A stretch of 52,173 nt of DNA. Source: an uncultured Thiotrichales bacterium (GTDB lineage Bacteria > Pseudomonadota > Gammaproteobacteria > UWMA-0217). Location: assembly GCA_964613895.1 (NCBI GenBank), contig CAZTJP010000002.1:1-52173 (forward strand), written 5' to 3'. Shown piece by piece: positions 7,392 through 41,615 of the stretch. Numbering within the stretch: position 1 is the first letter of the stretch; each line of letters starts with the position of its first letter. A program made the position numbers and the translations under genes. A model generated the notes under the pieces. The model saw nothing but the letters and a program-made list of their open reading frames with translations, did no database searches and had not been told where the DNA came from.

Positions 7392-10300
7392 TCACCAGAG
7401 TTCGTGCAAGCGGTCTTCCACATCGTCACGGTGTTGCGGGAAGATATCGGTCCGCGGCAACTGATAGCGGCGCAGGAAGATCCCGGCCTGAAACTCCCGG
7501 AAGTCGTTGACATCGGTACCGCTGAGCCAGCCACCCAGCGCATACTGCCGGCCAATGGCGTATTCCAGTTCGGCGTGGATATTGTAGACGAACTCGTTCT
7601 TGTCCTCGGCGTCGTATTGGGTACGCACGGCACTGTTGACGGTATCATGAATTTCCTGCAACCGGGTCTGCAGTGGTGGATCGATCGGGAAAACATCCAC
7701 GGCGTCGGTTCTGAACTTCTGCTGGCCAAGATCGGCGCCCAGCCGCAGACTCAGCGGCCCGCGATCCATCTGGAAGTCCAGCGGCAATGAGACATTGACG
7801 TATTGCTGCGGGCTGAAGTAGCCGCCATGACCGAGGGTGAAGAAGTTCAGATTCTTCTCATACGCCATCCAGCGGCCATTGAGTCCGGTGGTGAAACGGG
7901 TCGACCCGTTGTCGAACAGCTTGAAATAGAAACCGGCCTTGGCTTCGGCGGAGCTGTTGTCGGCAACTGCCTGTCCGTCGTAGATGTGTGCGCCCAAATC
8001 GCCGTAGAAGCCGGCCTTCTCATCACCCAGCGTGAAATCGACATTGAAGCCGGTCTTGGCCACGGCGCCCCATTCCTGCTTGGTGTCCGGGTCTTTCAGG
8101 CCAGCGTAGGACAGCAGCGAGTCCTTGACCGCGCGGCGCGTCACATGGGCACCAAAGCGGGAGCGGTAGCTGCGATGTTGCCAATGCAGTCCGCCGAGCA
8201 GGGTGTTGATGCGAAATCCGATGGGGGTTACGCCAAGATCGAGCTTGTAATTCCTGCCCTGGATGAAACCGTTGACGCCAATGCCGACATCGGAAAAGCT
8301 GTAGGCGTTGTTGATGACCGGATCCCGTTCGCGCGGATCGTCGCTCTCGCGCGCCAGCACCAGTGCGCCGATGCGGTTGGGCGCCCCGACCTCCGGACGC
8401 GCCGTGCCGGCATCGACTGAAACCGCACGCACGCTCAGGCCAGAGGCGCTCTGATAGTCGCGGTAATTCTTCATCAGCAGCGGGACGGAAACCTCGGTCA
8501 GCTTGTCGATACCCTCATCGCCGTCACGCTGGCGCAGCCCCACGCCACCGAGGACGTTGTTGAGCTTGCGGTTGTTGAGGCGTCGCAGATCCTTGCGGGC
8601 CTCGAACTGCCAGCTTCCCGGACGGGCGTTGCCGAGCGTATCGCCACCACCGGAACCTGTCTCGGGACTGTTATAGGTGCGGTCGTCATAGTCATCGAAC
8701 AGTGACTGCTGCAGATCCTGGGCGGCGCCGTTGTAATCGCCTTTCAGGAGTTTCAGTTTGCCACGTAGCGCCAACAGTTCCGGGGCCTCGAGCACGGTCC
8801 GCAAGCCTTTGTCGACCACTTCACGGGCCTTGGTGAAGCGGGCCTGTTCCATCAACGAACCAGCCAGTCCGGCATAGGCAGCCCGGTAATTCGGGTCGGC
8901 GAACAGGATTTCGCGGTAGAGTTTCTGCGCCTTGTCGTGCTGGCCGCTTTCCTTGTAGATCGTAGCGCGTGACAGCTTCAGCTCCAGGTTCTTCTCGAAC
9001 CGCTTGCGCATCGGTTCGAGCACCGCCAACGCTTCCTTGTAGCGTCTCTGCTTGCGCAGATCGTCCGCTTTCTGCAATGACATGCCCAGCTTGAGATGCG
9101 CCAGGTCATCCTGCTGGGCGAAATCCATCGAATCCTTGCGGGCCTCGAGATCGGCCAGCACCGATTCGAGCATGTCGGTTTCGCGCGCCTTGAGCAGCAC
9201 GGTCGCCAATTGGGTCTTGAATGCGATATCGTCGGGGGTCGACAGCGTCTTCACCTGGTTGACGATCTTCATGGCTTCGTTGACATCGCCGATATCCGCC
9301 AGCAACTCGGCCCGGATCAGCATGGCCGAAGGATCGGATTGTTCGACGATCTTCATGGTGTCGATGATGTCCCGAACCGCGCCATAATCACCAATGGCGA
9401 CCAGTTGATCCGCTTCGAGCTTTTTCTGCTTGATCCAGAGCTGGCGGTAGACTTCGCGATAGAGCGCAGCTTCCCGCTTGTTGCGGTACGCCGGCGGGAT
9501 GCTCTCCAGCGCCACCAGTCCCTCGAACAGTTCGTTGAACTGGGCGTGGTACAAGGCCTTGGCGTGATAGGCCTCCGGATAGTTGGGATACATGGAGATC
9601 AACTGGTCCAGCAGCGACAGGGCGATCTTGGGCCGGCCGGCCTTGCGGTAATGACGCGCCAGATCGAGCCGAATCCAGGGATCTTGTGGTTGCAGACGTT
9701 GGGCGCGGGTCAGCAGCTTGATGGCTTCTTCATTGCTGCGGGCCTGGCCCGCCTCGGCACGCAATGCGGCGGCTTCGACCATATTGCGATAGCTGAGGTA
9801 GTCACTGTCCGGCAGGTTGTAGCGATGAATGATGCGGCCTGCGGCTTCCATGTCACCCATACCGGCGAGTGCACCGGCCAGGCCTTCCTGCGCATCACGG
9901 TTGTCGGGTTGCACGGCCAGCACCTGCTCGAAGTACTGTTTGGCGGTGGCGTTGTCTTTTTCACCGGCCGCAATGCGCGCCAGCAACAGCAGTGTGTCCG
10001 GATGGTCGGGGCGCATGGCCAGCGCCTGTAATGCCAGATCGCGCGCCTTGTCGGTCTCACCCTGTTTGTAGGCCCAAGAGGCATCGGAAAAGATGGCCCA
10101 GAAACGGGCTTCCTCGAGTGGTTGCTGCAAATCGGCATTGCGGCGTGGCGCGGCTTCGATCGCCAGTGACAGATAGCGTTCGGCTTCCTTGAAATTCTGC
10201 AGCCGCAAATGGGCAATGCCCAAACCCTTGAGCGCTTCGGCATCTCTGGGGTTGTGCTCGAGCAATCGCTGAAACTGGGCAATAGCCTCATCGGAGAGTT

Positions 10301-11360
10301 CTTGGTCCAGCAATTGGTAACCCTGCTGGATCTTGCGGCCGTGAGCTGCCCGTTTACGCGCCAGGCGGGCACGGCGCTCGGCTGCCCGTTGACGGGCTTC
10401 GGCGGCGCGCAGTTCCTCTTCGGTGGGTGGGGGCGCTGGCAGTGCCTGCCTCTTGGCGATGATCTCGTTATCACCGGGATGTTTCTTCAGAAATGCGTCG
10501 TAGAGATCGCGCTCGGCCTGGGTCGCATTGAGCCACAACAGGGCTTGACGCCAGGCTTCGACGGCTTCCCGGGCAAATTTGGGTTTCTCCGCCAGCACTT
10601 CCAGCATACGAATGCCATCACGCCGGGTCGCTTCACGGTAAGTCTTGAGTTTGGCCAGCGGGAAGGTGTATTCGTCGATGTCGGGATAACGCTGGTGCAA
10701 TGTGGACAGTTCGTTGTGCACCGAAGTCCAGTTATCGTCGGAGCCACCCAGCCAGGAGACGGCTTCCAGCCAGGCACGCCGCGCCTCACGCCCAATGGTC
10801 GGGTCGTCACGCAGTGCCTGGAGCATTTTGATGCCTTGGATGCGTGTCGGTTCCTGAAATGTCAGTGCGGTCGCCAGCATGTATTGGTAACGCTTGCTGG
10901 AAGGGTAGAGGCGTGTCAGCCGTTCGAGTTCCTGGCGAGCGGTTTGCCAGCCTTCCGGTGTGCCCGCCATGGTCAGATAGTATTCGGCCGCCAGAAAGGA
11001 ACTGGGCGGTTTGCCGTCACTGGCGGCGAAAGCCCGCTGATAAAGGTTGAGTGCCTGCCTGGGCTTGCCCAGACGAGCGGTTTTGCGCGCCTTTTCCAGT
11101 AATGCCTTATCGACAGCCTCGACCTGCGCGGCGTTGAGTTCTTCGAGTGCCTTTTTGGCTTCGGCATTGTCAGGATCGATCAGCAAGACCTTGCGCCAGG
11201 CTTCGGCCGAGAAGTCGGGTCGTCCCTGTTCGTACCAGTAGTGTCCCTGGCTCAGCAACTGGTCGATGTCGGTCTGGCTCGCGGCGGATGCGGTACTGCT
11301 GGCGCCGGCCAATACGGCGGCGATGCACAATCCGAGCATATTCTTGTTGAATGGCTTCAT
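7392..11360 (-). CDS. bcsC: Cellulose synthase operon protein C (TPR array plus C-terminal beta-barrel), copy 1
   Basis: Start taken at MKPFNKNMLGLCIAAVLAGASSTASA (signal peptide). Long TPR region and a C-terminal porin-like domain ending ...AGIFLRRYQ. The architecture parallels the second copy at 41615..45187. Confidence 0.9.
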   Translation of the reverse strand: MKPFNKNMLGLCIAAVLAGASSTASAASQTDIDQLLSQGHYWYEQGRPDFSAEAWRKVLLIDPDNAEAKKALEELNAAQVEAVDKALLEKARKTARLGKPRQALNLYQRAFAASDGKPPSSFLAAEYYLTMAGTPEGWQTARQELERLTRLYPSSKRYQYMLATALTFQEPTRIQGIKMLQALRDDPTIGREARRAWLEAVSWLGGSDDNWTSVHNELSTLHQRYPDIDEYTFPLAKLKTYREATRRDGIRMLEVLAEKPKFAREAVEAWRQALLWLNATQAERDLYDAFLKKHPGDNEIIAKRQALPAPPPTEEELRAAEARQRAAERRARLARKRAAHGRKIQQGYQLLDQELSDEAIAQFQRLLEHNPRDAEALKGLGIAHLRLQNFKEAERYLSLAIEAAPRRNADLQQPLEEARFWAIFSDASWAYKQGETDKARDLALQALAMRPDHPDTLLLLARIAAGEKDNATAKQYFEQVLAVQPDNRDAQEGLAGALAGMGDMEAAGRIIHRYNLPDSDYLSYRNMVEAAALRAEAGQARSNEEAIKLLTRAQRLQPQDPWIRLDLARHYRKAGRPKIALSLLDQLISMYPNYPEAYHAKALYHAQFNELFEGLVALESIPPAYRNKREAALYREVYRQLWIKQKKLEADQLVAIGDYGAVRDIIDTMKIVEQSDPSAMLIRAELLADIGDVNEAMKIVNQVKTLSTPDDIAFKTQLATVLLKARETDMLESVLADLEARKDSMDFAQQDDLAHLKLGMSLQKADDLRKQRRYKEALAVLEPMRKRFEKNLELKLSRATIYKESGQHDKAQKLYREILFADPNYRAAYAGLAGSLMEQARFTKAREVVDKGLRTVLEAPELLALRGKLKLLKGDYNGAAQDLQQSLFDDYDDRTYNSPETGSGGGDTLGNARPGSWQFEARKDLRRLNNRKLNNVLGGVGLRQRDGDEGIDKLTEVSVPLLMKNYRDYQSASGLSVRAVSVDAGTARPEVGAPNRIGALVLARESDDPRERDPVINNAYSFSDVGIGVNGFIQGRNYKLDLGVTPIGFRINTLLGGLHWQHRSYRSRFGAHVTRRAVKDSLLSYAGLKDPDTKQEWGAVAKTGFNVDFTLGDEKAGFYGDLGAHIYDGQAVADNSSAEAKAGFYFKLFDNGSTRFTTGLNGRWMAYEKNLNFFTLGHGGYFSPQQYVNVSLPLDFQMDRGPLSLRLGADLGQQKFRTDAVDVFPIDPPLQTRLQEIHDTVNSAVRTQYDAEDKNEFVYNIHAELEYAIGRQYALGGWLSGTDVNDFREFQAGIFLRRYQLPRTDIFPQHRDDVEDRLHELW

Positions 11361-11797
11361 AGAACTCCGAACTCCTACCTTCCACAGAGTGTCAGCGGGA
11401 CTGACGTGTATAGTACGCTGCGGCACTGTTACCCGTTTTCAGCGACGAGGGAGTGAAGCAGTCAACGTTTTCGCCAATTTCCGGCGGGAGACAGTCAAAA
11501 TTTAGAAACAATCGGCAATTTCAATGAGGATTGGGTCACAGTCCCGACCGGTTACCGCCCGATCGTGCCACTGAGCCGGTGGATTTGACCGGGTTGGTAA
11601 TCGTCCATCCCGAATTCAATGGCTTACGCTTTTTGTGAAACGCATTGCAGACAGTATCGGAAGGCTTCCATTAGGCTAATATCGATATCAATCGGCCGGA
11701 TGGCGCATTTTTTCCACCGTCCGCGACTTTTGGGCTTTGTTTTCGCCAGGTTGGGCTGACCGGCGAAATCACGATCAACAATAAACCGGGATCTGGC

Positions 11798-14700
11798 GTG
11801 AATAACCACTTACCCCCAAGCATGAGAGAACCACAGAAACAGGAAGGCGTGAAAATCGTCATCCAATGGCTGGCATTGGTGATTGCGCTGGGATTGATCC
11901 TGCTGATCAGCACCGTTCCGCTGGGGCTGACCGAGCAACTGGTATTCGCCATGCTGGCCATGGGCTTCACCTTTCTGGTGCGGCCGGAGAATGATAAGTC
12001 ACGTTTCCGCCTGATTTTGCTGATGCTGGTGTCGTTCGGCATCACTTGCCGGTACATCTATTGGCGGATCACGGTGTCGATGGGCTGGTTCGATCCCGAT
12101 GTGCATCTGACATTCTGGGATCATTTTTTCTCGATCGGTTTGTTACTGGCGGAAGTCTATGCCTGGTCGGTACTGTTTCTGGGTTTTATCCAGAGTATCT
12201 GGCCATTACGCCGCCCGGTGCTGCCGTTGCCGGTGGACAGAAGCGCCTGGCCCACGGTCGATGTCTATATTCCCACCTACAACGAACCGCTGGATATCGT
12301 CATACCCAGCATTCTCGCCGCCCGCGATCTCGACTGGCCGGAAGACAAGCTCAATGTCTATGTGCTCGATGATGGCTGTCGGCCTGAATTCGAAGCCTTT
12401 GCCCGCAAGGTCGGCGTGCGCTATATCCAACGTAAGGACAGTGCTGGCGCCAAGGCCGGAAATATCAACAATGCGTTGCGGATCACCGACGGCGAATATA
12501 TTGCGATTTTCGACAGCGATCATGCACCCGTTCGGTCCTTCCTGCGCAAGACCATGGGCTGGTTCCTGCGGGACGGTAATCTGGGGCTGTTGCAAACCCC
12601 CCATCTGTTCTTCACCCCCGACCCGGTGGAACGCAATCTCGGCATCTACAAGAAAGTGCCGAACGAGGGCCAGCTTTTCTACGGTTTGGTGCAGGATGGC
12701 AACGATAACTGGAATGCGGCATTCTTCTGCGGATCCTGCGCGGTGCTGCGTCGTCAGGCGCTCGATGAAATCGGTGGCATCACCGCGGATACCGTAACCG
12801 AAGATGCGCATACTTCGCTGAAGATGCACAAACAGGGCTGGAATTCGGCCTACCTCAATATGCCGCTGGCCGCCGGGCTGGCCACCGAGAAACTGTCGCA
12901 ACACATTGGTCAGCGCCGCCGTTGGGCCCGTGGCATGATCCAGATCTTCCGCAAGGACAATCCACTGTTCGCGCGTGGTCTGAGTTTGTTGCAACGGCTC
13001 AGCTACTTCAATGCCATGCTGCACTTTCTGTTCAGCGTGCCACGGCTGGTATTTCTGACCGCACCACTGGCCTATCTGCTTTTCCAGGTACATGTCATTC
13101 AGGCATCGGCTGCGATGATCGCCGTATACGCCTTGCCGCACATCTTCCAGGCCCATATCGCCAATGCCGCCATGCAGGGGCGTTTCCGCCACAGCTTCTG
13201 GGCCGAGGTCTATGAAACGATTCTGGCGCCGCATATCGTCATTCCGACGATTGCCGCATTCTTCGCACCCAACCGCGGCAAGTTCAATGTCACCAGCAAG
13301 GGAGGCGTGGTCTCGCGCGATCATTTCGACTGGTCGTCCGCCGGGTTCATCTTCGTGCTGTTGCTGCTCAATATTCTGGGACTGGTGTTCGCCTATTTTC
13401 GGTATTTCTACTGGAACACCTTCGAAACCGACACCGTGCTGCTGAATTTCGGCTGGACCGTCTATAACACCATCATCATTGGCGCCGCGCTGGCGGTGGC
13501 CTGGGAGAAGCGTCAGCGGCGCAAGCATCCCCGCATCGAACGCACGTTTCCTGCCCAGGTCATGACGGCTGACGGACGACGCTTCGAGGCGATGACCAAG
13601 GATCTCTCGATTGGAGATCTGAGTCTCGAACTGAAAGGATCGGCCCCCGTGCAGCCACATGAATTCGTGGATATCCTGCTGTCCGACAAAGGGGAGAAGC
13701 CATTGCGTTTCCGTGCCCGTGTCGCAACATGCTCGGCTGATCGCATCGGTGTGGTGTTCGAAGAACTGACGGCCAATCAGTTGGCGAAACTGGTATATCT
13801 GGCCCACGGCAAGGACAAGGCCTGGAACGCCTGGTATCTCGCCTGTGAACCGAGCAAGCCGCTACGCTCGTTCCTGGAGATCGTACGCTTTGGCATTCTG
13901 GGTGCGTTCAAGGCCCTGTTCAAACGCGAGAAAACCGAATCGGGCGCACAGCTCAAACCGCGTTTCGCCGTACTTGGCTGGGTGGTATTGCTGATCGTAC
14001 TGGCAATTGGCGGCTACCTCTATCCCCAGTACAGCAACGCGGCTGAGACGCCTGCTTCGGACACACAGGCTGGCCAGACGCTGATGTTCAGGTTGGCAGA
14101 TCTGGGCAGGGACAAGGATATCGCCCTGCGTGGTGGCAATACGGACGAAGATGTCTGGTTCTCACTGCCCACCGAACTGGTCGTCAAACAGGCCGATTTC
14201 GAACTCGGCTTTGCGCTTTCCGGTGCATTGTTGCGGGATTACAAGGCGTTGCAGGTTCGCCTGAATGAACATGAGATCGGCCAGATTCCGCTCAATGAAA
14301 TCACCACAGAGTCGCCTTATCGCAATACTTTCAGGATCGATCCGTTGCTGGTCAGTTCCAACAACCGGCTGTCGTTCAGGTTGTTACCGAAACAGCCGGA
14401 CTATTGTGAACGCCTCGATCCCGCAGCGGCCCAGGCGCTGATATCCAATCAAAGCCGGATCCGATTGCGAGCGGAGCGTATCAATCTGGTCAACGATCTG
14501 GCGTTGTTGCCCATTCCTTTTTTCGATGCCAAAGCCAGCAAGCGACAGCCCTTGCCGTTCGTGTTTCCGGCGGCGCTTGCCTCTGACATGACCACGCTGC
14601 GCGCGGCGGGAGTGCTGTCTTCCTGGTTCGGTGTGAAAGGTGGATGGAAAAGTGGTGATTTCCCTGTGCTGGTCGATCAATTGCCCAATCACCACGCCGT

Positions 14701-16222
14701 GGTCTTCGCGACCGCGGATGCACATCCGGCCTATCTCGATGGGCTGGAAATCGAGGGCCCTGGCGTTGCCATCGTCTCCCATCCGCAGCAGCCGGCGACC
14801 AAACTGCTGGTCATCATGGGGGTGAACAACGATCAATTGCTGGACGCGGTCGATACGCTGATCGCCAGCGCCGGACAGGGAACGCTGTCCGGTAGTCGGG
14901 TCGATTTTCCTTCACCGGCAAAACCTCAACGACGCGCGCCCTATGATGCGCCTTCGTGGCTGGCGACCGGGCAGATCAACCGTTTCGGGGACTTCATCGA
15001 ACCCGGTGCTTTGACGGTCAAGGGTCTGTTTCATGCTGATATCCCCGTCAAGTTTCGCGTGCCGCCCGATTTGTACGCGCTCGACGGCCATGATCCCAAT
15101 GTTTCCCTCGGGTTCGGTTTTTCCGGATTCCGGCCTGCCAGTGACAGTCGCCTGGATGTGATGCTCAACGGGGAAGGGCTGAATCAGTTCGAACTGAAGC
15201 CTGTTGCCAACACCGATCATGGCCAGGATTCAGATGCGCAAGCAGCGGTGGCAGGCAAACGGCAGGTCTCCTTTGCGCTGCCCCTGGGCAAGCTCGCCGG
15301 TGAGAATACGCTGTCACTGTTTTTCGATTTCCGCGCGGATGATGATAACCGCGTTTGTCTCAATCAGGGACAGTCGGGCATTTCCGGCACGATCGATCCC
15401 GATTCGACGATCGATCTCAAGGGATTCTCCCATTATGGAAAATTTCCCGACCTCAAAAGTTTTGCCCGGCTCGGTTTCCCGTTCACCCGACTGGCTGACC
15501 TGAGCGAGACTGCCGTTGTGCTCAGCGAAAATCCCGGCAAGGATGACGTGTACGCTTTTCTCAATCTGATGGCCAAGGCAGGCGCTTCGACCGGGCTGCC
15601 GGCCTTCCGGGTGGCCGTCACCACTAGCGGCGATGTCACCCGTTATGCCGACAGGGATCTGCTGTTGTTGGGCAGTTATCGGGAAAACCGCCTGTTGCAA
15701 AGTTGGAGCGATGCGATGCCGGTCTCCATTCACGATGGCCGCTGGACTGCGCGTCGAACCGGTCTGTTTGAGAAACTCGAGCACCTCTTCAGCAGTCAAC
15801 CGCTGAACGACACGGCAGATGCGGAAAGTTATCTCGATGACCAGGTCGAGGGCAGTGTCATTCTCATGGGCTTTCGCTCACCACTGAATTCGTCTCGCAA
15901 CGTGGTGGCTCTGACCGCTCGCGAGGCCAGCAGCCTGCCGGGCTATGTCACTTCCCTGTTCGATGAGGGATTTGCGCGGGCGATTCGAGGGGAAGTTTCG
16001 GTAGCCGGTCGATCCGAGGTCGCCAACTTTACGCTGTTTCCTTCGTATTATCTTGGCGACCTGCCGTGGTTCACCAGTCTGCGACTGATGATGGCGCGCC
16101 ATGTGCTGTTGCTGTTCCTGGTCTTTCTCACCGCCGTGCTGGTCGCGGGATGGAGTTACACCGGCCTGCTGAAAAGGCACGCCCGGGCACGTATATCGAA
16201 CGCATCAACCGTTCGGGCCTGA
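11798..16222 (+). CDS. bcsA: Fused cellulose synthase catalytic subunit BcsA plus c-di-GMP-regulated subunit BcsB (AcsAB-type), copy 1
   Basis: 1474 aa. GT2 motifs: YVLDDG, FDSDH, QTPH, TEDAHTS, QRRRWARG (QxxRW). PilZ segment: RRKHPR...DLSIGD. Then a linker TM (about 13960..14030), a BcsB-like periplasmic region and a C-terminal TM anchor. GTG start; an alternative ATG is at 11822. Confidence 0.9.
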   Translation: MNNHLPPSMREPQKQEGVKIVIQWLALVIALGLILLISTVPLGLTEQLVFAMLAMGFTFLVRPENDKSRFRLILLMLVSFGITCRYIYWRITVSMGWFDPDVHLTFWDHFFSIGLLLAEVYAWSVLFLGFIQSIWPLRRPVLPLPVDRSAWPTVDVYIPTYNEPLDIVIPSILAARDLDWPEDKLNVYVLDDGCRPEFEAFARKVGVRYIQRKDSAGAKAGNINNALRITDGEYIAIFDSDHAPVRSFLRKTMGWFLRDGNLGLLQTPHLFFTPDPVERNLGIYKKVPNEGQLFYGLVQDGNDNWNAAFFCGSCAVLRRQALDEIGGITADTVTEDAHTSLKMHKQGWNSAYLNMPLAAGLATEKLSQHIGQRRRWARGMIQIFRKDNPLFARGLSLLQRLSYFNAMLHFLFSVPRLVFLTAPLAYLLFQVHVIQASAAMIAVYALPHIFQAHIANAAMQGRFRHSFWAEVYETILAPHIVIPTIAAFFAPNRGKFNVTSKGGVVSRDHFDWSSAGFIFVLLLLNILGLVFAYFRYFYWNTFETDTVLLNFGWTVYNTIIIGAALAVAWEKRQRRKHPRIERTFPAQVMTADGRRFEAMTKDLSIGDLSLELKGSAPVQPHEFVDILLSDKGEKPLRFRARVATCSADRIGVVFEELTANQLAKLVYLAHGKDKAWNAWYLACEPSKPLRSFLEIVRFGILGAFKALFKREKTESGAQLKPRFAVLGWVVLLIVLAIGGYLYPQYSNAAETPASDTQAGQTLMFRLADLGRDKDIALRGGNTDEDVWFSLPTELVVKQADFELGFALSGALLRDYKALQVRLNEHEIGQIPLNEITTESPYRNTFRIDPLLVSSNNRLSFRLLPKQPDYCERLDPAAAQALISNQSRIRLRAERINLVNDLALLPIPFFDAKASKRQPLPFVFPAALASDMTTLRAAGVLSSWFGVKGGWKSGDFPVLVDQLPNHHAVVFATADAHPAYLDGLEIEGPGVAIVSHPQQPATKLLVIMGVNNDQLLDAVDTLIASAGQGTLSGSRVDFPSPAKPQRRAPYDAPSWLATGQINRFGDFIEPGALTVKGLFHADIPVKFRVPPDLYALDGHDPNVSLGFGFSGFRPASDSRLDVMLNGEGLNQFELKPVANTDHGQDSDAQAAVAGKRQVSFALPLGKLAGENTLSLFFDFRADDDNRVCLNQGQSGISGTIDPDSTIDLKGFSHYGKFPDLKSFARLGFPFTRLADLSETAVVLSENPGKDDVYAFLNLMAKAGASTGLPAFRVAVTTSGDVTRYADRDLLLLGSYRENRLLQSWSDAMPVSIHDGRWTARRTGLFEKLEHLFSSQPLNDTADAESYLDDQVEGSVILMGFRSPLNSSRNVVALTAREASSLPGYVTSLFDEGFARAIRGEVSVAGRSEVANFTLFPSYYLGDLPWFTSLRLMMARHVLLLFLVFLTAVLVAGWSYTGLLKRHARARISNASTVRA

Positions 16223-16333
16223 TCGTGGCAACCGAAATGGCGTCCTGTACTGGCTGAACCATTCAGCACCGATTCATGCATGAAGGGGTTTACTGACGAT
16301 CGATCCTGATCGAGGCAAAGCCCCTTCGTTGAC

Positions 16334-17107
16334 ATGTATTGGAAGCCGTTCTGGTTGGTCTGTCTGCTGAGCCTGGGCAGTCTGGTGACTGTCGAAGCCG
16401 CTACCGCAGGGCCCTGGACGAATGCCATCAGCGTTACACGGGAATATCGAGGTGATCCTGCGCAGCCTGCGTTGCAGGCCCATGAGTCACTGCAGCGGGT
16501 GCCGATGGTGTTATCTGGCCCGCGGCGGGAATCGCATGTCTTCGCGAGCGGCATCGGGGCGCGCTCGGGCATTGCATCCTATCCTTGTCCTGTCGCACCA
16601 CGTTTGGGCCAGGTCGCGGTCAGCCTCGATGACGACACCGACCGGGATGGCTATTTTTCCTTTTTCTCGCTGCGCTTTGTGCCACGGGGCTATTGCCAGC
16701 ACCGTTATGTCTTCGCGCGCCTGTTTCTCAGTTATGAAGGCGGACCCTGGAACCTGTTGTACCGAACCCATGCCTGGGAAGGCGGATCCGGCGCCGATCC
16801 GATCATGCTCGATACGCGACTCCAGCAAAACTATCCCACCGGTTTCTACGACCTGCTGATTGAGCTCTACGATGCGGCCGATGGCCGCTGGCTGCTCAGC
16901 GAGGGGCCCTACGAAACTGCGGCGTTGCGTTCGCTTCCACTCGAAGCGGAATCGCTGGACGTGTTTGACACGGGTCCCCGGCTCGGCTACGTCTTCTATG
17001 GAACAGGCGCGATTGGTGTTGAATGGCTGATGCTATTGCTGACGGTCATCTGGCGTCGTTTGGCCAACCGCCGACGTTTCCGTCGGAACGCGGTTTTTTT
17101 AGGATAG
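16334..17107 (+). CDS. Exported hypothetical protein with a C-terminal TM helix plus Arg-rich tail
   Basis: Signal peptide MYWKPFWLVCLLSLGSLVTVEA. The C-terminus GTGAIGVEWLMLLLTVIWRRLANRRRFRR resembles protein-sorting (GlyGly-/PEP-CTERM-class) tails. No family recognised for the core. Confidence 0.55.
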   Translation: MYWKPFWLVCLLSLGSLVTVEAATAGPWTNAISVTREYRGDPAQPALQAHESLQRVPMVLSGPRRESHVFASGIGARSGIASYPCPVAPRLGQVAVSLDDDTDRDGYFSFFSLRFVPRGYCQHRYVFARLFLSYEGGPWNLLYRTHAWEGGSGADPIMLDTRLQQNYPTGFYDLLIELYDAADGRWLLSEGPYETAALRSLPLEAESLDVFDTGPRLGYVFYGTGAIGVEWLMLLLTVIWRRLANRRRFRRNAVFLG

Positions 17108-17247
17108 ACGGAAATCTCAGGTATACTAGCGCCGATTTCTTGCCGGCCTCGCTGTGAGGCCAACCAAATGAACCTGCATATTGAACAGGTGGAGGCGTTT
17201 TCGCGGATGACTGTACAGGTCCCTGGGCATATCGGGAGGCTTTTTTC

Positions 17248-17820
17248 ATGACGGCGGAGTCCGCAGAGGCGGTAACCTCGCCGGAGAACCGAGAAAGCGC
17301 CGATCAACGGGCTGGTTCATGGGCGATCAATCTGCTGGTGCTGCTGGCGCTCGGGCTGATCTACAGCGCCCTGATCATGGATGACCACGTCGCGCCAGCT
17401 GTGACCCGTTCACCGAACAGTGCTTCACTGGCGGCTGGTGATGCAGCCAGGAGCTGGCTGAAACAGCAACGCGCTGCCGGCAAGGCTGGTGATCTCGAAA
17501 GTGTCTACACCCAGGCGCGCCGTTTCGATGCCGACGGCAAGCGTACCGATGCGTATCTGCTGTATTTTTATGCGGCCAGAAAAGGGCATGGCCTGTCGGC
17601 CATGGCGCTGGCGCATGATTCCGATCCGGTTGGTTTCTCTCCCGACAACTCCATCACTGGCGTGGCTGCGCCTTTCGAAGCCTATAAATGGTACAAGGTC
17701 GCGGAGAAAGCGGGCGTAAGCGAAGCAACCGGCAAACTCGCCAGCCTTGAACAATGGGCCAGAGCCGAAGCCCGCAAGGGCAACCCACAAGCACAAAGGA
17801 TCCTGTTGTTATGGCAATGA
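17248..17820 (+). CDS. Membrane-anchored Sel1-like repeat protein
   Basis: GGGAGG RBS. N-terminal TM (WAINLLVLLALGLIYSALI). Sel1-type repeats (AYLLYFYAARKGHGLSAMALA; AYKWYKVAEKAGVSEA; GNPQAQRILLLW). Confidence 0.6.
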   Translation: MTAESAEAVTSPENRESADQRAGSWAINLLVLLALGLIYSALIMDDHVAPAVTRSPNSASLAAGDAARSWLKQQRAAGKAGDLESVYTQARRFDADGKRTDAYLLYFYAARKGHGLSAMALAHDSDPVGFSPDNSITGVAAPFEAYKWYKVAEKAGVSEATGKLASLEQWARAEARKGNPQAQRILLLWQ

Positions 17821-19769
17821 TCTCGAAAACAGCGATTGCCCTGATCACCGGCCTGTTGCTGTCGCTCTTCACCGTGGTCAGTGCTGGCCAGGTCGAACCA
17901 TTGCTGCTCAAGGGGAAAAGACACCTCTACCAGCGGGTCGTGACGCGGCCAGGGGCGATGCTCGAGGCCCGGCCAGGCCACGACCAGGATGCTCACAAGG
18001 CGCCGGCCTTTTCGATCTACTACGTCTACAGCCGCAAACAGCTTGGCCAGACTGAGTGGTTGCAGGTGGGCGATAACACGACCGGCAAGCATCTCGCGTG
18101 GGTTCGCGGCTCACAGACCATTCCGTGGCAAAGGGGTCTGACCGTTCTGTTCCGCAATCCCCTGGGCCAGGAACGCGCCCTGTTCTTCAGGGATGAGAAA
18201 ACCCTGAAATCGCTGGTCGAGAAAGGCGACCGCAAAACCTACGAAAACTATTACCATCAGGCTGTCGAGGGCAAACTCGGCGCCGATTCACCCGTGGTGG
18301 CCATTCAGCCCGACGATTACATCGATCCAGCACGCCAGTTCTATCTGGCTCCGATCCTGCAATCCGAGGATGTCTTCTTCGGAGAGGGGCAGGCAAAGCT
18401 GCTGCGGGTTGCGACTGTCACTGAACAGAGTGCTGCTGGACAGCCGGTCGTCGAAGAAACCACGGCAGATGACGCCAAAACTGCCGACGCCGCCAAACCC
18501 TACACCGTGGGCGTGGTGTTCGTGGTCGATGCGACCCTGTCGATGGGACCCTATATCGACCGCACCCGACAAGCCATCCACAAGCTCTACGATGCACTCA
18601 AACAGCAGGATTCGTCGGGCCAGATGCGCTTTGGTCTGGTCGCGTTTCGTGACAACACCGAAGCGGTTCCGGCGCTGGACTATGTCGTTCGCCGTTTTGC
18701 CACGCTGGCGCAGGGTGCGGACGCCAATCAGTTCTTTGCGGCCGTGGACCAGGTCGCGCCAGCCACCGTTTCCAGTCAGGACTTTCGCGAGGATGCCTAC
18801 GCCGGTATTCGTGAAGCGCTCGAACATACCGACTGGAAAGGGGTCGATGGACGCTACGTGATCCTGGTGACCGATGCCGGTCCACGTGGTGCACATGACC
18901 CGCTCGGCAGCACCGGTCTGAGCGCTGACACGCTCAACAAGCTGGCCCAAAGACAGCATATCTCGCTGACAGTATTACACCTGCTGACGCCCCAGGGTGC
19001 CGCGAACCACGCCGAAGCAGCCGATCGTTACCGCCATCTGTCGCGCTATCCCGGCCTCGGTTCACTCTATTATGGTGTCACCGCGGGTGATCTTCAGCAA
19101 TTCGGCCAGGCAGTCGATACCGTGGCGCAACAGATCGGGCTGAGTATCGAGACCGCCATGAAAGCACAGCCTGGAGCGCCTGACGGCAAGGCATCCCTGG
19201 AAGCCCTGAAAGGCAAGATTTCCCGCATCGGCCACGCGATGAAGATTCACTATCTGGCGGCTGGCAAGAAGAAAGTGCCCGATCTGGTGGATGCCTGGGT
19301 GCTGGATCGCAGCTTCTCCGACCCCGGTCGCAAGACACTCGATGTCGGCGTGCTGATGACCCGCGACCAGCTCAGCGATCTGCACCAGCGACTCACCGCC
19401 TTGCTGGCTTCATTCGAGGACGGTCTGTTGCAGCCGGAGAATTTCATCAATGACATCAAACAGGTGGCAGCGACGCTGACACGTGACCCCGACAAGCTGA
19501 AGGCGGTGGCAGACAAGGATCTCGCCTCGGTCGGTCTGATGCGCGAATACCTCGAGGATCTGCCATATCAGAGTGAAGCGATGTCGATCTCCCTCGAAGA
19601 CTGGAAACGCTGGCCGGTGGCGCGTCAGTTACGGTTCATCCATCGCCTGCAAGAGAAACTGGCCTATTATCAGGCGCTCTACGATCACCCCGACATGTGG
19701 TATTCGCCCGACGGCCAGCCGGTCAATGGCGAATCGGTCATCGCGCTGTCGCTCGACATGTTGCCTTGA
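17811..19769 (+). CDS. Secreted or anchored von Willebrand factor A (vWA) domain protein
   Basis: The start overlaps the Sel1 gene stop, with AAGGA 10 nt upstream. Signal/anchor MAMISKTAIALITGLLLSLFTVVSA. vWA core VGVVFVVDATLSMGPYI (DxTxS MIDAS variant) ... YVILVTDAG. About 230-aa flanking regions on each side are of unknown family. Confidence 0.8.
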   Translation: MAMISKTAIALITGLLLSLFTVVSAGQVEPLLLKGKRHLYQRVVTRPGAMLEARPGHDQDAHKAPAFSIYYVYSRKQLGQTEWLQVGDNTTGKHLAWVRGSQTIPWQRGLTVLFRNPLGQERALFFRDEKTLKSLVEKGDRKTYENYYHQAVEGKLGADSPVVAIQPDDYIDPARQFYLAPILQSEDVFFGEGQAKLLRVATVTEQSAAGQPVVEETTADDAKTADAAKPYTVGVVFVVDATLSMGPYIDRTRQAIHKLYDALKQQDSSGQMRFGLVAFRDNTEAVPALDYVVRRFATLAQGADANQFFAAVDQVAPATVSSQDFREDAYAGIREALEHTDWKGVDGRYVILVTDAGPRGAHDPLGSTGLSADTLNKLAQRQHISLTVLHLLTPQGAANHAEAADRYRHLSRYPGLGSLYYGVTAGDLQQFGQAVDTVAQQIGLSIETAMKAQPGAPDGKASLEALKGKISRIGHAMKIHYLAAGKKKVPDLVDAWVLDRSFSDPGRKTLDVGVLMTRDQLSDLHQRLTALLASFEDGLLQPENFINDIKQVAATLTRDPDKLKAVADKDLASVGLMREYLEDLPYQSEAMSISLEDWKRWPVARQLRFIHRLQEKLAYYQALYDHPDMWYSPDGQPVNGESVIALSLDMLP

Positions 19770-19784
19770 CGACTGCGCCGATCC

Positions 19785-20540
19785 ATGCAGGTTTCCAGAA
19801 CGGAATCCCCGCGGGTGTTGATCTACCACCTGAGGGAAGTCATCAAGACCCGCGAGGCAGAAGGTGCCAATTTCCGCCTCACCGTGCCGAGCCTGCAGAT
19901 CGGTCTGGGTGAAAAGATCGCACTGATCGGTGAAAGCGGCTGCGGCAAGAGCACCCTGCTGGACCTGCTTGCGCTGCTCTCCCGTCCGACCGAATCGGCG
20001 GCTTTCCGCTTCCGCCCGGAAGGCACCCGCGAAGCACTCGATATTGCGGCATACTGGCGCAGCAGGGACCTCGACGAGCTTGGCGATCTACGCAAGCAGC
20101 AGATCGGTTACGTCATGCAGACCGGCGGCCTGCTGCCCTATCTGACGGTCCGTCAGAACCTTACGCTGTCGCGCAAATTGCTGAATATGCGCGACGACAG
20201 CAAGGTCGATGACCTAGCCCGGAATCTGGGCATCCACCGCCACCTGGACAAGCTGCCGAGCCAGCTTTCCACCGGCGAACGACAGCGGGTCGCCATCGGT
20301 CGTGCACTGGCGCATCATCCCTCGATCGTGATCGCCGACGAGCCGACCGCATCGCTCGACCCGATCGCCGCCAAGAAGATCATGGCCCTGTTCATCGAAC
20401 TGGTGGAAGCCATGAACATCACCGTCATCGTTGCCAGCCACGCCTGGATGCACGTACGGGAACTCGGATTGCGGCGGATTTCGCTGCATACCCGGGTCTC
20501 GGCTGACGGCCAGCTGGCGGAAACCGTCGTGCGGGGGTGA
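19785..20540 (+). CDS. ABC transporter ATP-binding protein (LolD/MacB-type)
   Basis: Walker A GESGCGKST, Q-loop YVMQ, signature LSTGERQRV, Walker B IVIADEPT. Starts 15 nt after the vWA gene. Confidence 0.9.
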   Translation: MQVSRTESPRVLIYHLREVIKTREAEGANFRLTVPSLQIGLGEKIALIGESGCGKSTLLDLLALLSRPTESAAFRFRPEGTREALDIAAYWRSRDLDELGDLRKQQIGYVMQTGGLLPYLTVRQNLTLSRKLLNMRDDSKVDDLARNLGIHRHLDKLPSQLSTGERQRVAIGRALAHHPSIVIADEPTASLDPIAAKKIMALFIELVEAMNITVIVASHAWMHVRELGLRRISLHTRVSADGQLAETVVRG

Positions 20541-20550
20541 ATACGGTACC

Positions 20551-21753
20551 ATGAGCCATCGAATCCGCACCCTGTTCTGGCTGGCCGGCCGCGATTATTT
20601 CCTCGAATGGCAGATGTCGGGATTCACCGTGCTCGCGCTGGCCGCGGTACTGGGTCCAATGCTGATTCTGTTCGGTCTCAAGAATGGCATCGTCGGCAGT
20701 ATGCTCGACCAGTTGGTCAACAACCCGGCCAACCTCGAGGTGCACAGTACCGGCCCGGCCCGTTTTGGCCAGTCGTTCATCGATGCGCTGCGCAGCCGTC
20801 AGGATGTACAGTTTGCCATCCCCGAGTTTCCCGATATCGCCTCCAGTATTCAGCTCAAGGGTGGCCGGGCAGGGCGGATCGTCAAACTCAGACTGCGGCC
20901 CAGCGGTGCCCGGGATCCGCTGCTGACGGGGGCTGCGCCCCCGGAGGGCATCGATATCCTGCTGTCGGAGAACGCCGCCAGAACCTTGCAAGCACAACCC
21001 GGTGATGTCCTGGAAGCGCGTCTGTCGCGTATCTACGGCGGACACAATGACAGCCGAAAGCTCAAACTGGTGGTCAAGGGCATCGACACCGCGCTGGCCG
21101 GGATGACCGCGCTGGCACCACTGGAACTGGTCCAGGCCATTGCCGACTATCGCGACGGCCGCGCTGTCCCGACCATGAACTGGCCGGGCGATGACTCGCC
21201 TCGCGGTGAGCGTAGCTATCCCGGATTCCGCGTCTATGCCCGTTCGATACACGACGTACAGACCATCCGCCGGGATCTCGAGCTGCAGGGCGTCGATACC
21301 GAATCACGCAGCAAGGACATTGCCGTGGTTCAGTCGGTCGATCGTAATCTGACCCTGATCTACTGGCTGGTCGCCATCATCGGGCTGCTCGGCTACACGC
21401 TGTCACTGAGCGCCAACCTGTGGGCCAACATCGACCGCAAGCGGCGCGATCTGGCTGTGCTCCGGGTAGTGGGTTTTCGCACCAGCGATATCATCTGGGT
21501 GCCGGTCATTCAGGCCATCTATACCGCGCTGCTGGGCTGGGGCTTGGCCGTCGCAATCTATTTTGCCGTCAGCCGCTCGATCAACCACATCATGGCCGGC
21601 CACCTGCAGGCGGGGCAAACCGTTTGCAAACTGGCGCCCTGGCATTTCACCGCCGCGTTACTGCTGACCCTGGCCGCGGCAATCCTCTCGGCCGTGCTGG
21701 CGGGCTATCGCGCCTCCCGCATCGAGCCGTCGGACGGGCTCAGGGAGCTATAG
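20551..21753 (+). CDS. FtsX/MacB-type ABC permease (4 TM, large periplasmic loop)
   Basis: Internal ATG 20551 (MSHRIRTLFWLAG), 10 nt after the ATPase stop. TM1 is followed by an approximately 230-aa extracytoplasmic domain and three C-terminal TMs. It ends ...AGYRASRIEPSDGLRE, as FtsX-family permeases do. Confidence 0.85.
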   Translation: MSHRIRTLFWLAGRDYFLEWQMSGFTVLALAAVLGPMLILFGLKNGIVGSMLDQLVNNPANLEVHSTGPARFGQSFIDALRSRQDVQFAIPEFPDIASSIQLKGGRAGRIVKLRLRPSGARDPLLTGAAPPEGIDILLSENAARTLQAQPGDVLEARLSRIYGGHNDSRKLKLVVKGIDTALAGMTALAPLELVQAIADYRDGRAVPTMNWPGDDSPRGERSYPGFRVYARSIHDVQTIRRDLELQGVDTESRSKDIAVVQSVDRNLTLIYWLVAIIGLLGYTLSLSANLWANIDRKRRDLAVLRVVGFRTSDIIWVPVIQAIYTALLGWGLAVAIYFAVSRSINHIMAGHLQAGQTVCKLAPWHFTAALLLTLAAAILSAVLAGYRASRIEPSDGLREL

Positions 21754-22500
21754 TCGGTCATGGCCGCAGACCGGGCAGGCCGGATCCTTCGGCAGCGTGA
21801 TCGTTCGCCATTCCATCGTTCGGATATCCATCAGCAACAGCCGACCTGGTCGTACCTCGAGTCCACCCAGTAACTTGATCGCCTCACTTGCCTGAATGCT
21901 GCCGATGATGCCCGGCGCCGACGCCAGCACCCCGATCTGCCGGCAAGTCTCACCCTCACCCTCGTTCACCGGCTTGTAAAGGCATTGATAGCAGGGTGAC
22001 GCGGGATCTCGCGCATCGAACACACAAACCTGACCCTCGTAGCGAATCACACCGCCGGAAACCAGTGGCGTTTGGGTGGCATGACAGACAGCATTGAGTT
22101 CGAAACGTGATGCGAAGTTGTCACTGCAATCGATGAAGACATCCACTTCACGCGCCAGCGCGGTGAGTTCATCCGCATCCAGCGCACGGGCCAGGGTTCG
22201 GACCTCGATATCGGGATTGATCGCCGCCAGCTTTTCCGCCCCGGATTCGACCTTGAACTTGCCGACATCCCGCTGGGTATGAATGATCTGGCGTTGCAGA
22301 TTGCTCGTTTCGACGACATCGAAATCGACCAGCGTGATCACCCCCACGCCGGCCGCAGCGAGATACAGCGCCACCGGTGCACCCAGCCCACCAACGCCGA
22401 TGATGCAGGCATGCGCATCGAGCAGACGTTGTTGCGCCTCGACCCCGAAGCCTTCGAGCTGCAGATGGCGGCCATAACGGCGGCTTTGTTCGGGTGTCAT
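21748..22500 (-). CDS. moeB: Molybdopterin-synthase adenylyltransferase (MoeB/ThiF family)
   Basis: 250 aa. RYGRHLQLEGFG, GVGGLGAPVALYLAAAGVG nucleotide loop, and CYQC...CPVCG zinc site. Confidence 0.85.
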   Translation of the reverse strand: MTPEQSRRYGRHLQLEGFGVEAQQRLLDAHACIIGVGGLGAPVALYLAAAGVGVITLVDFDVVETSNLQRQIIHTQRDVGKFKVESGAEKLAAINPDIEVRTLARALDADELTALAREVDVFIDCSDNFASRFELNAVCHATQTPLVSGGVIRYEGQVCVFDARDPASPCYQCLYKPVNEGEGETCRQIGVLASAPGIIGSIQASEAIKLLGGLEVRPGRLLLMDIRTMEWRTITLPKDPACPVCGHDRL

Positions 22501-22697
22501 TGGAAAAAATGGGCGTATGTAAACATTTTGTTCGAAGTTTGACCCAGATCACTATTCAATGTAAAACCGATGATCGGTTGGCCAGTACGCCGACAGGTCG
22601 ATTTACCACGAAGGTGGTTGATTGTCATGCAAAATGTCCGCCGCATTGGTCATGCACGATGCGCGGATACGACATTCCACAAACAGCGAGAGGAACG

Positions 22698-23486
22698 ATG
22701 AAGACCAGATTGATAGTCACAAGTATTGCCATTGCCATGAGTCTCGGCGCCTGCGAAAAGGCGAGCGACCTGGCGGAGGCTGGCAAGGAAGCCGCCAGCA
22801 ATGTCGCGGAGAAAGCGGGTGATCTTGGCTCCGCAGCCATGGACAAGGCCAAGGAAGCGGGTGCAGCCGCGATGGATACCGCCAAGGAAGCCGGCGCGGC
22901 GGCGGTTGACAAGGCGAAAGAGGCCGGATCGGGCGCGATGGACGCCGTCAAGGATGCCGGTTCCGCCGCTGTCGAAGGCGCCAAGCATCTCGGTGACAAG
23001 GCTGCCGAGGGCGCGGCTGCGGTTGCCGACAAGGCCAGCGAAGCGGGAGCAGCCGCGATGGAAAAGGCGAAAGAAGCCGGATCTGGCGCCATGCATGCAG
23101 CCACGGAAGCGGGTTCGAAAGCTGTCGATACCGCCAAACAGGCAGGACAGGCCGCTGCCGAAGGCGCTGGCAACCTTGGCCACAAGGCAGCGGCAGCCGC
23201 TGGCGCCGCGGGTGCGGCTGTGGCAGCAGGTGCCGCGGCCGCTACGTCCGGTGGCGGGGGTGACGACGTCAGCGCCGCAATCCAGGCCGCGAAAGACCTC
23301 TATGCCAAGGCCAAATCCCATGATGCCGCCTGGCGGGATACTGAAAAACTGATCAAGGCCGCGGAAGAAGCCGCCAAGGGTGGCGATACGGACAAGGCCA
23401 TGAAACTGGCTGCCCAGGCCAAGGCACAATCCGAAAACGCGCTCAAACAGGCGGAAGCACAGAAATCCGCCGGCCCGCGTTTCTGA
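22698..23486 (+). CDS. Ala-rich lipoprotein with tandem 11-residue repeats
   Basis: GAGAGG RBS. Lipobox AMSLGAC. About 13 consecutive 11-mers (e.g. GAAAMDTAKEA / GAAAVDKAKEA / GSGAMDAVKDA), then a poly-Ala/Gly linker and a helical C-terminal domain. Confidence 0.7.
   Translation: MKTRLIVTSIAIAMSLGACEKASDLAEAGKEAASNVAEKAGDLGSAAMDKAKEAGAAAMDTAKEAGAAAVDKAKEAGSGAMDAVKDAGSAAVEGAKHLGDKAAEGAAAVADKASEAGAAAMEKAKEAGSGAMHAATEAGSKAVDTAKQAGQAAAEGAGNLGHKAAAAAGAAGAAVAAGAAAATSGGGGDDVSAAIQAAKDLYAKAKSHDAAWRDTEKLIKAAEEAAKGGDTDKAMKLAAQAKAQSENALKQAEAQKSAGPRF
22761..23189 (+). repeat. In-frame 33-nt periodic tandem repeat (coding 11-mers)
   Basis: Successive 33-nt units, e.g. gccaaggaagcgggtgcagccgcgatggatacc / gccaaggaagccggcgcggcggcggttgacaag / gcgaaagaggccggatcgggcgcgatggacgcc. 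Boundaries are approximate. Confidence 0.7.
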
Positions 23487-41354: not shown

Positions 41355-41615
41355 GATGGGTTGGATCACTGGCCGGGGGCGCAACAGTATCTGGTTGGCT
41401 GGCTGGCCGGCGATGGTCGTTCGGTGGCGTGGCTGGAGCAGTTCGAAGCGCCTTGGGGGCTCGGGATGCCTGGTTCCGGCATTCAGGCCGTACCGGGATG
41501 GATCGAGGGGTGTCGTTTGTTGTTCATGGGTGTTGCCAAGGTTGACCTGATATCCGTGCAATACCAGGGGGGTGCTGATCAACAGGGCTGCCAGCACTGT
41601 TTTTGTGGAGTGCAT
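41328..41615 (-). CDS. Small secreted Pro-rich protein, last gene of cellulose locus 2
   Basis: ATG (41615..41613) overlaps the bcsC stop by 1 nt (TAATG), with GGAGG 7 nt upstream. Signal peptide MHSTKTVLAALLISTPLVLHG. The mature part is Pro/Gln/Arg-rich. Confidence 0.55.
   Translation of the reverse strand: MHSTKTVLAALLISTPLVLHGYQVNLGNTHEQQTTPLDPSRYGLNAGTRHPEPPRRFELLQPRHRTTIAGQPANQILLRPRPVIQPISTPPVLLF

Follow-up and report, generated by a model that had tools for sequence, protein, structure and literature searches.

The 52,173-nucleotide stretch of contig CAZTJP010000002.1 from an uncultured Thiotrichales bacterium (assembly GCA_964613895.1; hereafter the window) carries, at 17248-21753 on the forward strand, four co-directional open reading frames (ORFs). 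They encode a 190-residue bitopic inner-membrane anchor (17248..17820, +; hereafter the small protein), a 652-residue secreted protein with a domain of the von Willebrand factor A (vWA) type (17811..19769, +), a 251-residue ATP-binding cassette (ABC) ATPase (19785..20540, +) and a 400-residue FtsX-family permease with four transmembrane (TM) segments (20551..21753, +). We believe that this module is probably a self-contained envelope machine that would correspond, in evolutionary terms, to the "sensor half" of the threonine-phosphorylation pathway of type VI secretion systems (T6SS), minus its cytoplasmic output. A first-pass annotation had assigned the four genes to no recognisable system and knew of no described member of the FtsX/MacB-type ABC systems whose partner is a vWA protein plus a Sel1 scaffold. 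This view did not survive comparison with T6SS gene clusters, in which the vWA protein finds its counterpart in the PpkA ectodomain and the ABC pair in the genes at the TagT and TagS positions. The match to a characterised transporter system that the annotation had named as evidence against itself was thus largely found, yet the version in the window is without several of that system's defining parts.

The TagQRST-PpkA module has been described in several reports (PMC3224232, PMC6657622, PMC12607579, PMC13584744). PpkA has an extracellular VWA sensor domain (PMC3224232), and TagS and TagT form an inner-membrane ABC complex with ATPase activity which, with TagQ and TagR, acts upstream of PpkA activation (PMC6657622, PMC12607579); TagS belongs to COG4591, TagT to COG1136 and TagR to COG1262 (PMC13584744). 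The pairing of an FtsX-type ABC complex with a periplasmic vWA region was already known from TagST-PpkA. When the family of the window's vWA protein was used in profile searches, some long matching proteins covered the entire vWA profile with their C-terminal ~640 residues; in the exhaustive profile search, the A1 profile covered positions 22-664 (E 2.6e-153). Two long proteins, P0303 (1028 residues) and P0269 (995 residues), combine an N-terminal Pkinase domain with the vWA region. P0303 is encoded in a T6SS locus (L093) with the order tssJ-tssK-tssL-tssM-tagF-PP2C-P0303. P0403, a 995-residue member of the P0269 cluster, is encoded in a second one (L095) with the order fha-tssJ-tssK-tssL-tssM-tagF-P0403-ABC-FtsX-FGE-sulfatase-two small genes-tssA-tssB-tssC-hcp. 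We take the content and order of such clusters to be those of Pseudomonas aeruginosa HSI-I PA0070-PA0080 (tagQ, tagR, tagS, tagT, ppkA, pppA, tagF, tssM, tssL, tssK, tssJ). BLASTP aligned residues 30-652 of the vWA protein with residues 414-1028 of P0303 at 33% identity (E 3e-111), reaching a shared C-terminal "LP", and tblastn aligned residues 16-652 with the fused PpkA of L095 at 41%. Judged from these alignments, the 652-residue protein corresponds to an entire PpkA ectodomain that is produced and secreted on its own.

A translated plasmid search returned 126 records with full-length homologs of the vWA protein at 31-40% identity. Among them, plasmid pTM1 of Tistrella mobilis carries a T6SS cluster in which kinase and ectodomain are encoded by separate genes: tssK-dotU-tssM-tagF-PP2C-kinase (475 residues)-vWA-ABC-FtsX-SUMF1/FGE-sulfatase-small-vgrG. 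Inquilinus has the same arrangement. No fused kinase-vWA protein was found among the word-index matches to the Tistrella protein, the long ones having no Pkinase domain; only the exhaustive profile search brought such fusions to light. The ATPase of the window is 49% identical to the gene following PpkA in L095, and 45% and 48% identical to its counterparts in Tistrella and Inquilinus, respectively. Over residues 10-400, the permease is 40% identical to the permease of the L095 T6SS cluster, 40% to that of Inquilinus and 38% to that of Tistrella. By identity and gene order, the ATPase and permease are colinear homologs of the ABC-FtsX pair that follows PpkA, at the positions of TagT and TagS.

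The fourth component, the small protein, is related to the C-terminus of the split kinases. The first-pass annotation had called it a TM-anchored Sel1-repeat protein; the TM anchor stood, and the Sel1 label applied weakly and only at the level of the family. Sel1 (PF08238) matched 17 of 25 family members below the gathering score (best E 4.5e-4) and the Haematospirillum homolog at E 4e-5, and the Gluconobacter homolog is named "sel1 repeat family protein" in RefSeq; the copy in the window had no Pfam match even at E<=10. The protein has a short acidic cytoplasmic tail, a single TM segment (residues 26-44, 17323-17379), a linker that varies and, in the periplasm, a Sel1-like domain (residues ~82-190, 17491-17817), with an N-in/C-out orientation predicted from hydropathy and charge distribution. 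In the family alignment (A2), the C-terminal domain is conserved (DAYLLYFYAAR.GH ... ADP ... QAYKWYK.AA), and the cytoplasmic tail is ~25 residues long and poorly conserved. In hhalign comparisons, A2 matched residues 380-467 of the Tistrella T6SS kinase (prob 96%, E 3e-9), which in that protein follow a kinase domain (50-297) and a TM segment, and also the C-terminus of a 339-residue Haematospirillum protein encoded 5' of vWA (prob 98.4%, E 4e-15) and the protein at the equivalent position in Klebsiella (prob 91%). A2 did not match the fused PpkA P0303 (prob 4%). With tblastn, the C-terminus of the Tistrella kinase matched the small gene in 11 sulfur-oxidiser loci, and residues 77-168 of the window's small protein matched the 3' end of a kinase gene located 5' of vWA in another locus, L091 (33%, E 1e-6). 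Kinases of the split form thus carry the Sel1-like domain, and fused PpkA does not. The small protein as a whole corresponds, on this evidence from sequence comparison, to the TM helix and periplasmic Sel1-like domain of a split-PpkA C-terminus, minus the kinase.

The four genes are tightly coupled, as the first-pass annotation had noted, with a 10-nt overlap followed by gaps of 15 and 10 nt. The small-protein gene is preceded by a GGGAGG Shine-Dalgarno sequence. The ATG of the vWA gene lies 10 nt inside it, and a second ATG at 17817 overlaps its TGA stop. At its 3' end, the module overlaps with a ThiF/MoeB gene that runs convergently. On the 5' side and outside the module, a consensus scan found a terminator-like hairpin with a T-run (17075..17100, +; stem-loop 17075-17090) at the 3' terminus of the choice-of-anchor-H gene that lies upstream. 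The hairpin has a 6-bp stem followed by CGGTTTTTTT, which is weak evidence; it probably marks the 5' boundary of the module's transcription unit. A promoter scan found no sigma-70-like site in 16100-22600.

The vWA protein, examined with Pfam, an AlphaFold model, Foldseek and BLASTP/tblastn, is predicted to be a soluble periplasmic protein. It starts with a cleavable signal peptide (residues 1-24, 17811-17882, +; residues 8-26 in the hydropathy analysis), with cleavage predicted between VSA and GQ and without a lipobox Cys. An N-domain (residues 30-205, 17898-18425, +), a vWA domain with a metal-ion-dependent adhesion site (MIDAS; residues 232-450, 18504-19160, +) and a C-domain (residues 475-652, 19233-19766, +) follow. 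Pfam placed VWA_4/VWA at residues 235-390 marginally (27.1 bits against a cut-off of 27). The AlphaFold model, made from 32 homologs, has three domains (predicted local distance difference test score, pLDDT, 76.8), and Foldseek matched the vWA domain, and no other part, with integrin I-domains and BatB (E 1e-9 to 1e-7, prob 1.0). MIDAS residues D240, S244 and D355 are invariant in the 32 homologs and T242 is nearly so. The central domain has a vWA fold with a MIDAS metal site, and here the first-pass annotation proved right, also in leaving the two flanking regions unplaced. Pfam gave no match at E<=10 for the N- and C-regions of this protein, for the permease loop or for the window's small protein, and the vWA family profile matched no PDB sequence, vWA domains included. 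In a fold search, the best matches of the N-domain model (pLDDT 81.5) were SH3/SH3b-like and not significant (E 0.045-1), a weak lead towards a possible cell-wall-binding SH3b domain. NCBIfam includes no model for the small and vWA proteins, and a PADLOC search with all four proteins produced no specific match, only generic ABC/AAA cross-matches.

The ATPase has a nucleotide-binding domain of the LolD/BceA/MacB kind (ABC_tran E 8e-28) with intact motifs: Walker A GESGCGKS, signature LSTGERQ and Walker B IVIADE. Its best PDB sequence matches include BceA, LolD and MJ0796, and its best NCBIfam matches were LolD, DevA and FtsE. All NCBIfam matches of the ATPase and the permease were below the cut-offs. 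TM segments of the permease at residues 25-43, 267-285, 314-332 and 361-379 leave a periplasmic domain of ~223 residues between TM1 and TM2 (residues 44-266, 20680-21348, +), and residues 273-393 match FtsX (PF02687, E 3.5e-13). The only PDB sequence matches of the permease were MacB and LolC, limited to TM2-4. Compared with MacB, the periplasmic domain has no detectable MacB_PCD signature (residues 1-283, no match to PF12704 at E<=10); the permease of a relative (L092) had a weak MacB_PCD match. With an FtsX domain, four TM segments and a large TM1-TM2 periplasmic domain, the permease has the features of type VII ABC transporters, and together the two proteins are a type VII (MacB/Lol/FtsEX-class) ABC complex. 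The first-pass annotation had rightly framed them in this way, giving the ATPase as LolD/MacB-like and the loop of the 4-TM permease as ~230 residues. The module shares the FtsX fold, the large periplasmic domain, the LolD/BceA-like nucleotide-binding domain and the expected mechanotransmission with MacB, LolCDE, FtsEX and BceAB. It differs from them in being without MacA/TolC, a lipoprotein substrate, EnvC or an amidase partner, the vWA protein standing in the partner's place. A MacAB-type pump was rejected as a candidate on the grounds that the related loci described below contain no MacA adaptor or further conserved neighbour.

The conservation of the neighbourhood was examined in 82 related loci with flanks of +/-8 kb. 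These comprise the best 80 loci of a scan over one genome per GTDB species, which found relatives of the vWA protein in 420 species genomes, and two loci retrieved by exact look-up. The order small-vWA-ABC-FtsX is retained in all 82 as far as the contigs reach, beyond what chance would give, which amply bore out the expectation that it would be conserved; in two loci (L001 and L030) an insertion of 3-4 kb separates the vWA and ABC genes. Identities to the window proteins are 31-51% for the small protein, 43-62% for the vWA protein, 60-88% for the ATPase and 45-73% for the permease. When the flank ORFs of the 82 loci were clustered all against all, no fifth conserved gene emerged; the other recurrent clusters were overlapping antisense ORFs and lineage-specific housekeeping neighbours such as queA and tgt. 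Full-length homologs of the vWA protein number in the hundreds, with identities of 43-61%, and almost all are from sulfur-oxidising Gammaproteobacteria, namely Sedimenticolaceae, Candidatus Thiodiazotropha, Chromatiales, Thiotrichales, Thiolapillus, Kentrum and tubeworm and clam symbionts. The profile of the vWA protein matched 648 clusters at 50% identity (E<=1e-30) among 1.84 billion representative proteins. Many kinase-less proteins of ~650 residues, P0054, P0058, P0090 and P0094 among them, are publicly annotated as "serine/threonine-protein kinase PpkA"; since this name derives from similarity to the PpkA ectodomain and the proteins are not kinases, it is misleading. On plasmid pTs485 of Candidatus Thiodictyon syntrophicum (L086, 70107-72883), vWA and ABC genes are annotated without an anchor or FtsX gene, amid insertion sequence and toxin-antitoxin genes; the copy may be degraded, or the PLSDB gene table may be incomplete here.

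No similarity to Pkinase or PP2C was found in the window or the 82 loci, and neither a TagF homolog nor a TagQ-position homolog was found in the window or in these loci and their flanks. SUMF1/FGE-sulfatase (TagR) was likewise missing from the window, with one stray match (L053) in the 82 loci, and T6SS Pfam families were not found among the window ORFs scanned. The H1-T6SS pathway of P. aeruginosa, TagQRST-PpkA-PppA-Fha1 (PA0070-PA0075), also combines an FtsX permease and ABC ATPase (TagS/TagT) with a periplasmic vWA region. The window module differs from it in having no kinase domain, PppA, Fha, TagF, TagR, TagQ or T6SS, and from P. aeruginosa PpkA in that the ectodomain is separate, secreted and presumably tethered by the kinase-less TM/Sel1-like protein. 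This likeness was gauged via T6SS clusters of the same gene order.

Two other known arrangements resemble the module. The split-PpkA T6SS clusters of Tistrella mobilis pTM1 and Inquilinus share with the window a TM segment plus periplasmic Sel1-like domain followed by vWA, ABC and FtsX, with overlapping junctions. In contrast to the window, their Sel1-like domain is the C-terminus of a Ser/Thr kinase of 475-515 residues, a SUMF1/FGE-sulfatase gene and a small-protein gene follow, and the whole is embedded in T6SS genes. T6SS-independent TagQRST/"PpkA" cassettes linked to srfABC were noted in host-associated Deltaproteobacteria in 2013 (PMC3608642), and a 2026 preprint (10.64898/2026.09.18.752743) describes the srfABC-linked cassette in Haemophilus and Xenorhabdus. 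We confirmed the order srfA-srfB-srfC-Sel1-type (317-339 residues)-vWA-ABC-FtsX-SUMF1-small protein(s) in Klebsiella pneumoniae, Haematospirillum, Gluconobacter and Cereibacter. This cassette resembles the module in its independence of T6SS, in the order Sel1-type-vWA-ABC-FtsX and in the homologous Sel1-like domains (prob 98.4%). It differs in having srfA/B/C before and SUMF1/FGE-sulfatase and small proteins always after, and in an upstream protein that is ~150 residues longer. Klebsiella accounts for 114 of the 126 plasmid records with a vWA homolog; records of Enterobacter sp. 638 and Lelliottia hold one too. In one of the Klebsiella records (L084, K. pneumoniae NZ_CP138739.1 147935-167863, IncFIB/IncU), the order is srfA-srfB-srfC-339 residues-vWA-ABC-FtsX-SUMF1-small, adjoining a tellurite-resistance gene; with the 113 further records, this T6SS-independent, TagRST/PpkA-ectodomain-like plasmid cassette is very common in clinical isolates. 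In the literature we found no description of the kinase-less, TagQ/TagR-less four-gene form, of a Sel1-like anchor as the counterpart of a split-kinase C-terminus, or of the module's wide spread in sulfur-oxidising Gammaproteobacteria.

The cytoplasmic domain joined to the periplasmic core differs among the relatives. T6SS clusters have a Ser/Thr kinase there, srfABC-linked cassettes a longer Sel1-containing protein, one fusion an ExeA-like AAA domain and the window's module only a ~25-residue tail. In the fusion (P0262, 1041 residues; L094 667-3792), an ExeA-like AAA_22 ATPase domain is joined N-terminally to the full ectodomain in place of the kinase; no FtsX gene follows, and a fragment of an ABC ATPase gene lies divergently upstream. 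L091 (4436-6796, -) carries a kinase-vWA-ABC-FtsX-FGE-sulfatase cassette with no T6SS genes within 10 kb, and its neighbours encode a 786-residue Pkinase/FGE-sulfatase fusion, a Sel1 protein, another FGE-sulfatase and another kinase.

According to the predicted topology, the periplasm is the shared location of the vWA protein, the Sel1-like domain and the permease loop. In type VII ABC systems such as MacB, LolCDE and FtsEX, ATP hydrolysis drives movement of the periplasmic domain. Because the Sel1-like domain is found in split kinases and is missing from the fused form, we infer that it would dock the free vWA protein at the inner membrane, replacing the covalent link of fused PpkA. The ABC complex would then transmit cytoplasmic ATP hydrolysis mechanically into movement of the ~220-residue periplasmic domain, and the target of this movement may be the vWA protein or a ligand bound at its conserved MIDAS site. 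Since the module is without a cytoplasmic output domain, it would either perform periplasmic work alone, such as surveillance or handling of envelope components, or signal via a partner encoded elsewhere.

Several observations weigh against this interpretation. That the Sel1-like domain would dock the vWA protein, and that the permease loop would touch the latter, are proposals drawn from patterns of presence and absence. The biochemical role of TagST is undefined in the literature, so that likeness to TagST transfers little mechanism. Equivalence to PA0072-PA0074 of P. aeruginosa would follow from metagenomic and alphaproteobacterial T6SS clusters of like gene content and order. A kinase or T6SS may also lie beyond +/-8 kb in the related genomes. 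TagQ and TagR, which are reported to form the essential core of the sensor in Pseudomonas (PMC6657622), have no counterparts here, and the input may therefore be different.

Among other explanations, the module might be an accessory machine for cellulose or another exopolysaccharide, working with the adjacent bcsAB and bcsC in place of absent accessory genes. A BcsA-BcsB fusion gene does lie 1 kb upstream of it on the same strand, in a window with two cellulose loci, and the first-pass annotation had suggested such a role on the understanding that the module directly follows the first of them. In fact a choice-of-anchor-H gene (16334-17107), the hairpin and a 140-nt spacer intervene. Neither bcsAB nor the choice-of-anchor-H gene was near the module in any of the 82 loci, and L002, the closest relative, has the same downstream synteny (thiF, surA, lptD, PBP2, rodA), yet its upstream genes are unrelated; the cellulose neighbourhood is thus specific to this genome. 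The homologous cassettes lie instead in T6SS or srfABC loci, and we consider a cellulose-related role very improbable. It is harder still to believe that the module is a decaying T6SS regulatory cassette which lost its kinase and T6SS and now has no function. The missing kinase, PppA, TagR, TagQ and T6SS genes would fit such decay, but the four ORFs are intact and colinear in 82 loci of many genera with vWA and ATPase identities of 43-62% and 60-88%, the catalytic and MIDAS motifs are conserved, and start/stop coupling is tight. Export or trafficking in the manner of Lol or MacB, in which a cargo that is periplasmic or anchored in the membrane (the vWA protein, a lipoprotein or a toxin) would be extracted by the ABC pair and passed outward, has more to recommend it, as the solved relatives of the permease are limited to MacB and LolC, and the ATPase is similar to LolD and BceA. 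The preprint cited above moreover interprets the Srf-linked cassette as a module of the LolF type that would serve the processing of toxins or outer-membrane-vesicle export. There are no srf genes here, however, and the module encodes no lipoprotein or toxin, the vWA protein having a signal-peptidase-I site and no lipobox. No gene for a MacA-type adaptor or TolC was found in the 82 loci, and in T6SS clusters the vWA-ABC-FtsX triad is fused or linked to a signalling kinase, which is more in keeping with a sensor than with an exporter. Overall, we regard export as rather unlikely.

Two further explanations keep the likeness to PpkA-TagST and differ in what the periplasmic part does. The module may provide a periplasmic input that acts in trans on an output encoded elsewhere, such as an orphan PpkA-like kinase or another transducer. 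The exchange of cytoplasmic partners across relatives (kinase, Srf-linked protein, AAA_22 fusion) would suit such an arrangement, as would the fact that the related genomes were inspected over +/-8 kb only. The kinase was nevertheless adjacent or fused in every kinase-linked relative seen, and the short, poorly conserved anchor tail offers little for signal transmission, so that this remains a doubtful, if reasonable, proposal. The other explanation, for which we see a modest chance, is that the kinase-less form is an autonomous envelope machine in which the PpkA ectodomain and TagST run their own ATP-driven periplasmic task, rather than a sensor awaiting a kinase; such a task may be the capture, extraction or repair of an envelope component via the MIDAS site. 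If this were true, T6SS and Srf systems would have added the kinase or other outputs later, to read the state of that task, and the minimal version in free-living and symbiotic sulfur oxidisers would be the simplest system in which to find what TagQRST-PpkA senses.

Elsewhere, the window contains two bcsAB-bcsC loci, lptD-surA-pdxA, PBP2-rodA-mltB-rlpA-dacA, a second VWA protein and housekeeping genes. The bcsAB genes at 11798-16222 (+) and 46330-50802 (-) each encode a BcsA-BcsB fusion of ~1480 residues (GT2, PilZ and BcsB); each locus has one bcsC, at 7392-11426 (-) and 41615-45319 (-), which in the first locus is divergent from bcsAB. The gene at 16334-17107 (+), between bcsAB and the module, encodes a 257-residue secreted protein with a C-terminal TM segment (choice-of-anchor H, NF038116, E 1.8e-25) and is not conserved beside the module in other genomes. 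Adjoining the second cellulose locus, a 611-residue protein (39481-41316, +) has a C-terminal VWA domain (PF00092, residues 456-577, E 2.8e-8) unrelated to the vWA protein of the module. Downstream of the module, an Ala/Lys/Glu-rich ORF of 330 residues (22494-23486, +) has repeated "AKEAG(A/S)(A/G)AMD"-like units and no Pfam match, its true start being probably internal, at the MKTRLIVTSIAIAMSLGAC lipoprotein-like signal; in L002 this position is occupied by a 266-residue gene without a Pfam match.

How TagQRST-PpkA detects envelope damage or attack, and what TagST does, has been a standing question since 2007-2013, and reviews call the latter only "ABC-transporter-like". A natural version that keeps only the ectodomain, the ABC pair and the docking anchor, as in all 82 loci inspected, offers a simpler system to dissect. 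Because this widespread version retains only these parts, the periplasmic triad would be a functional unit in its own right, with the Sel1-like domain as the likely adaptor linking the ectodomain to its membrane partner. The cassette is modular, and its core occurs with a T6SS kinase, with SrfABC (on many Klebsiella pneumoniae plasmids, among others), with an AAA domain or, as in this bacterium, with none of these.

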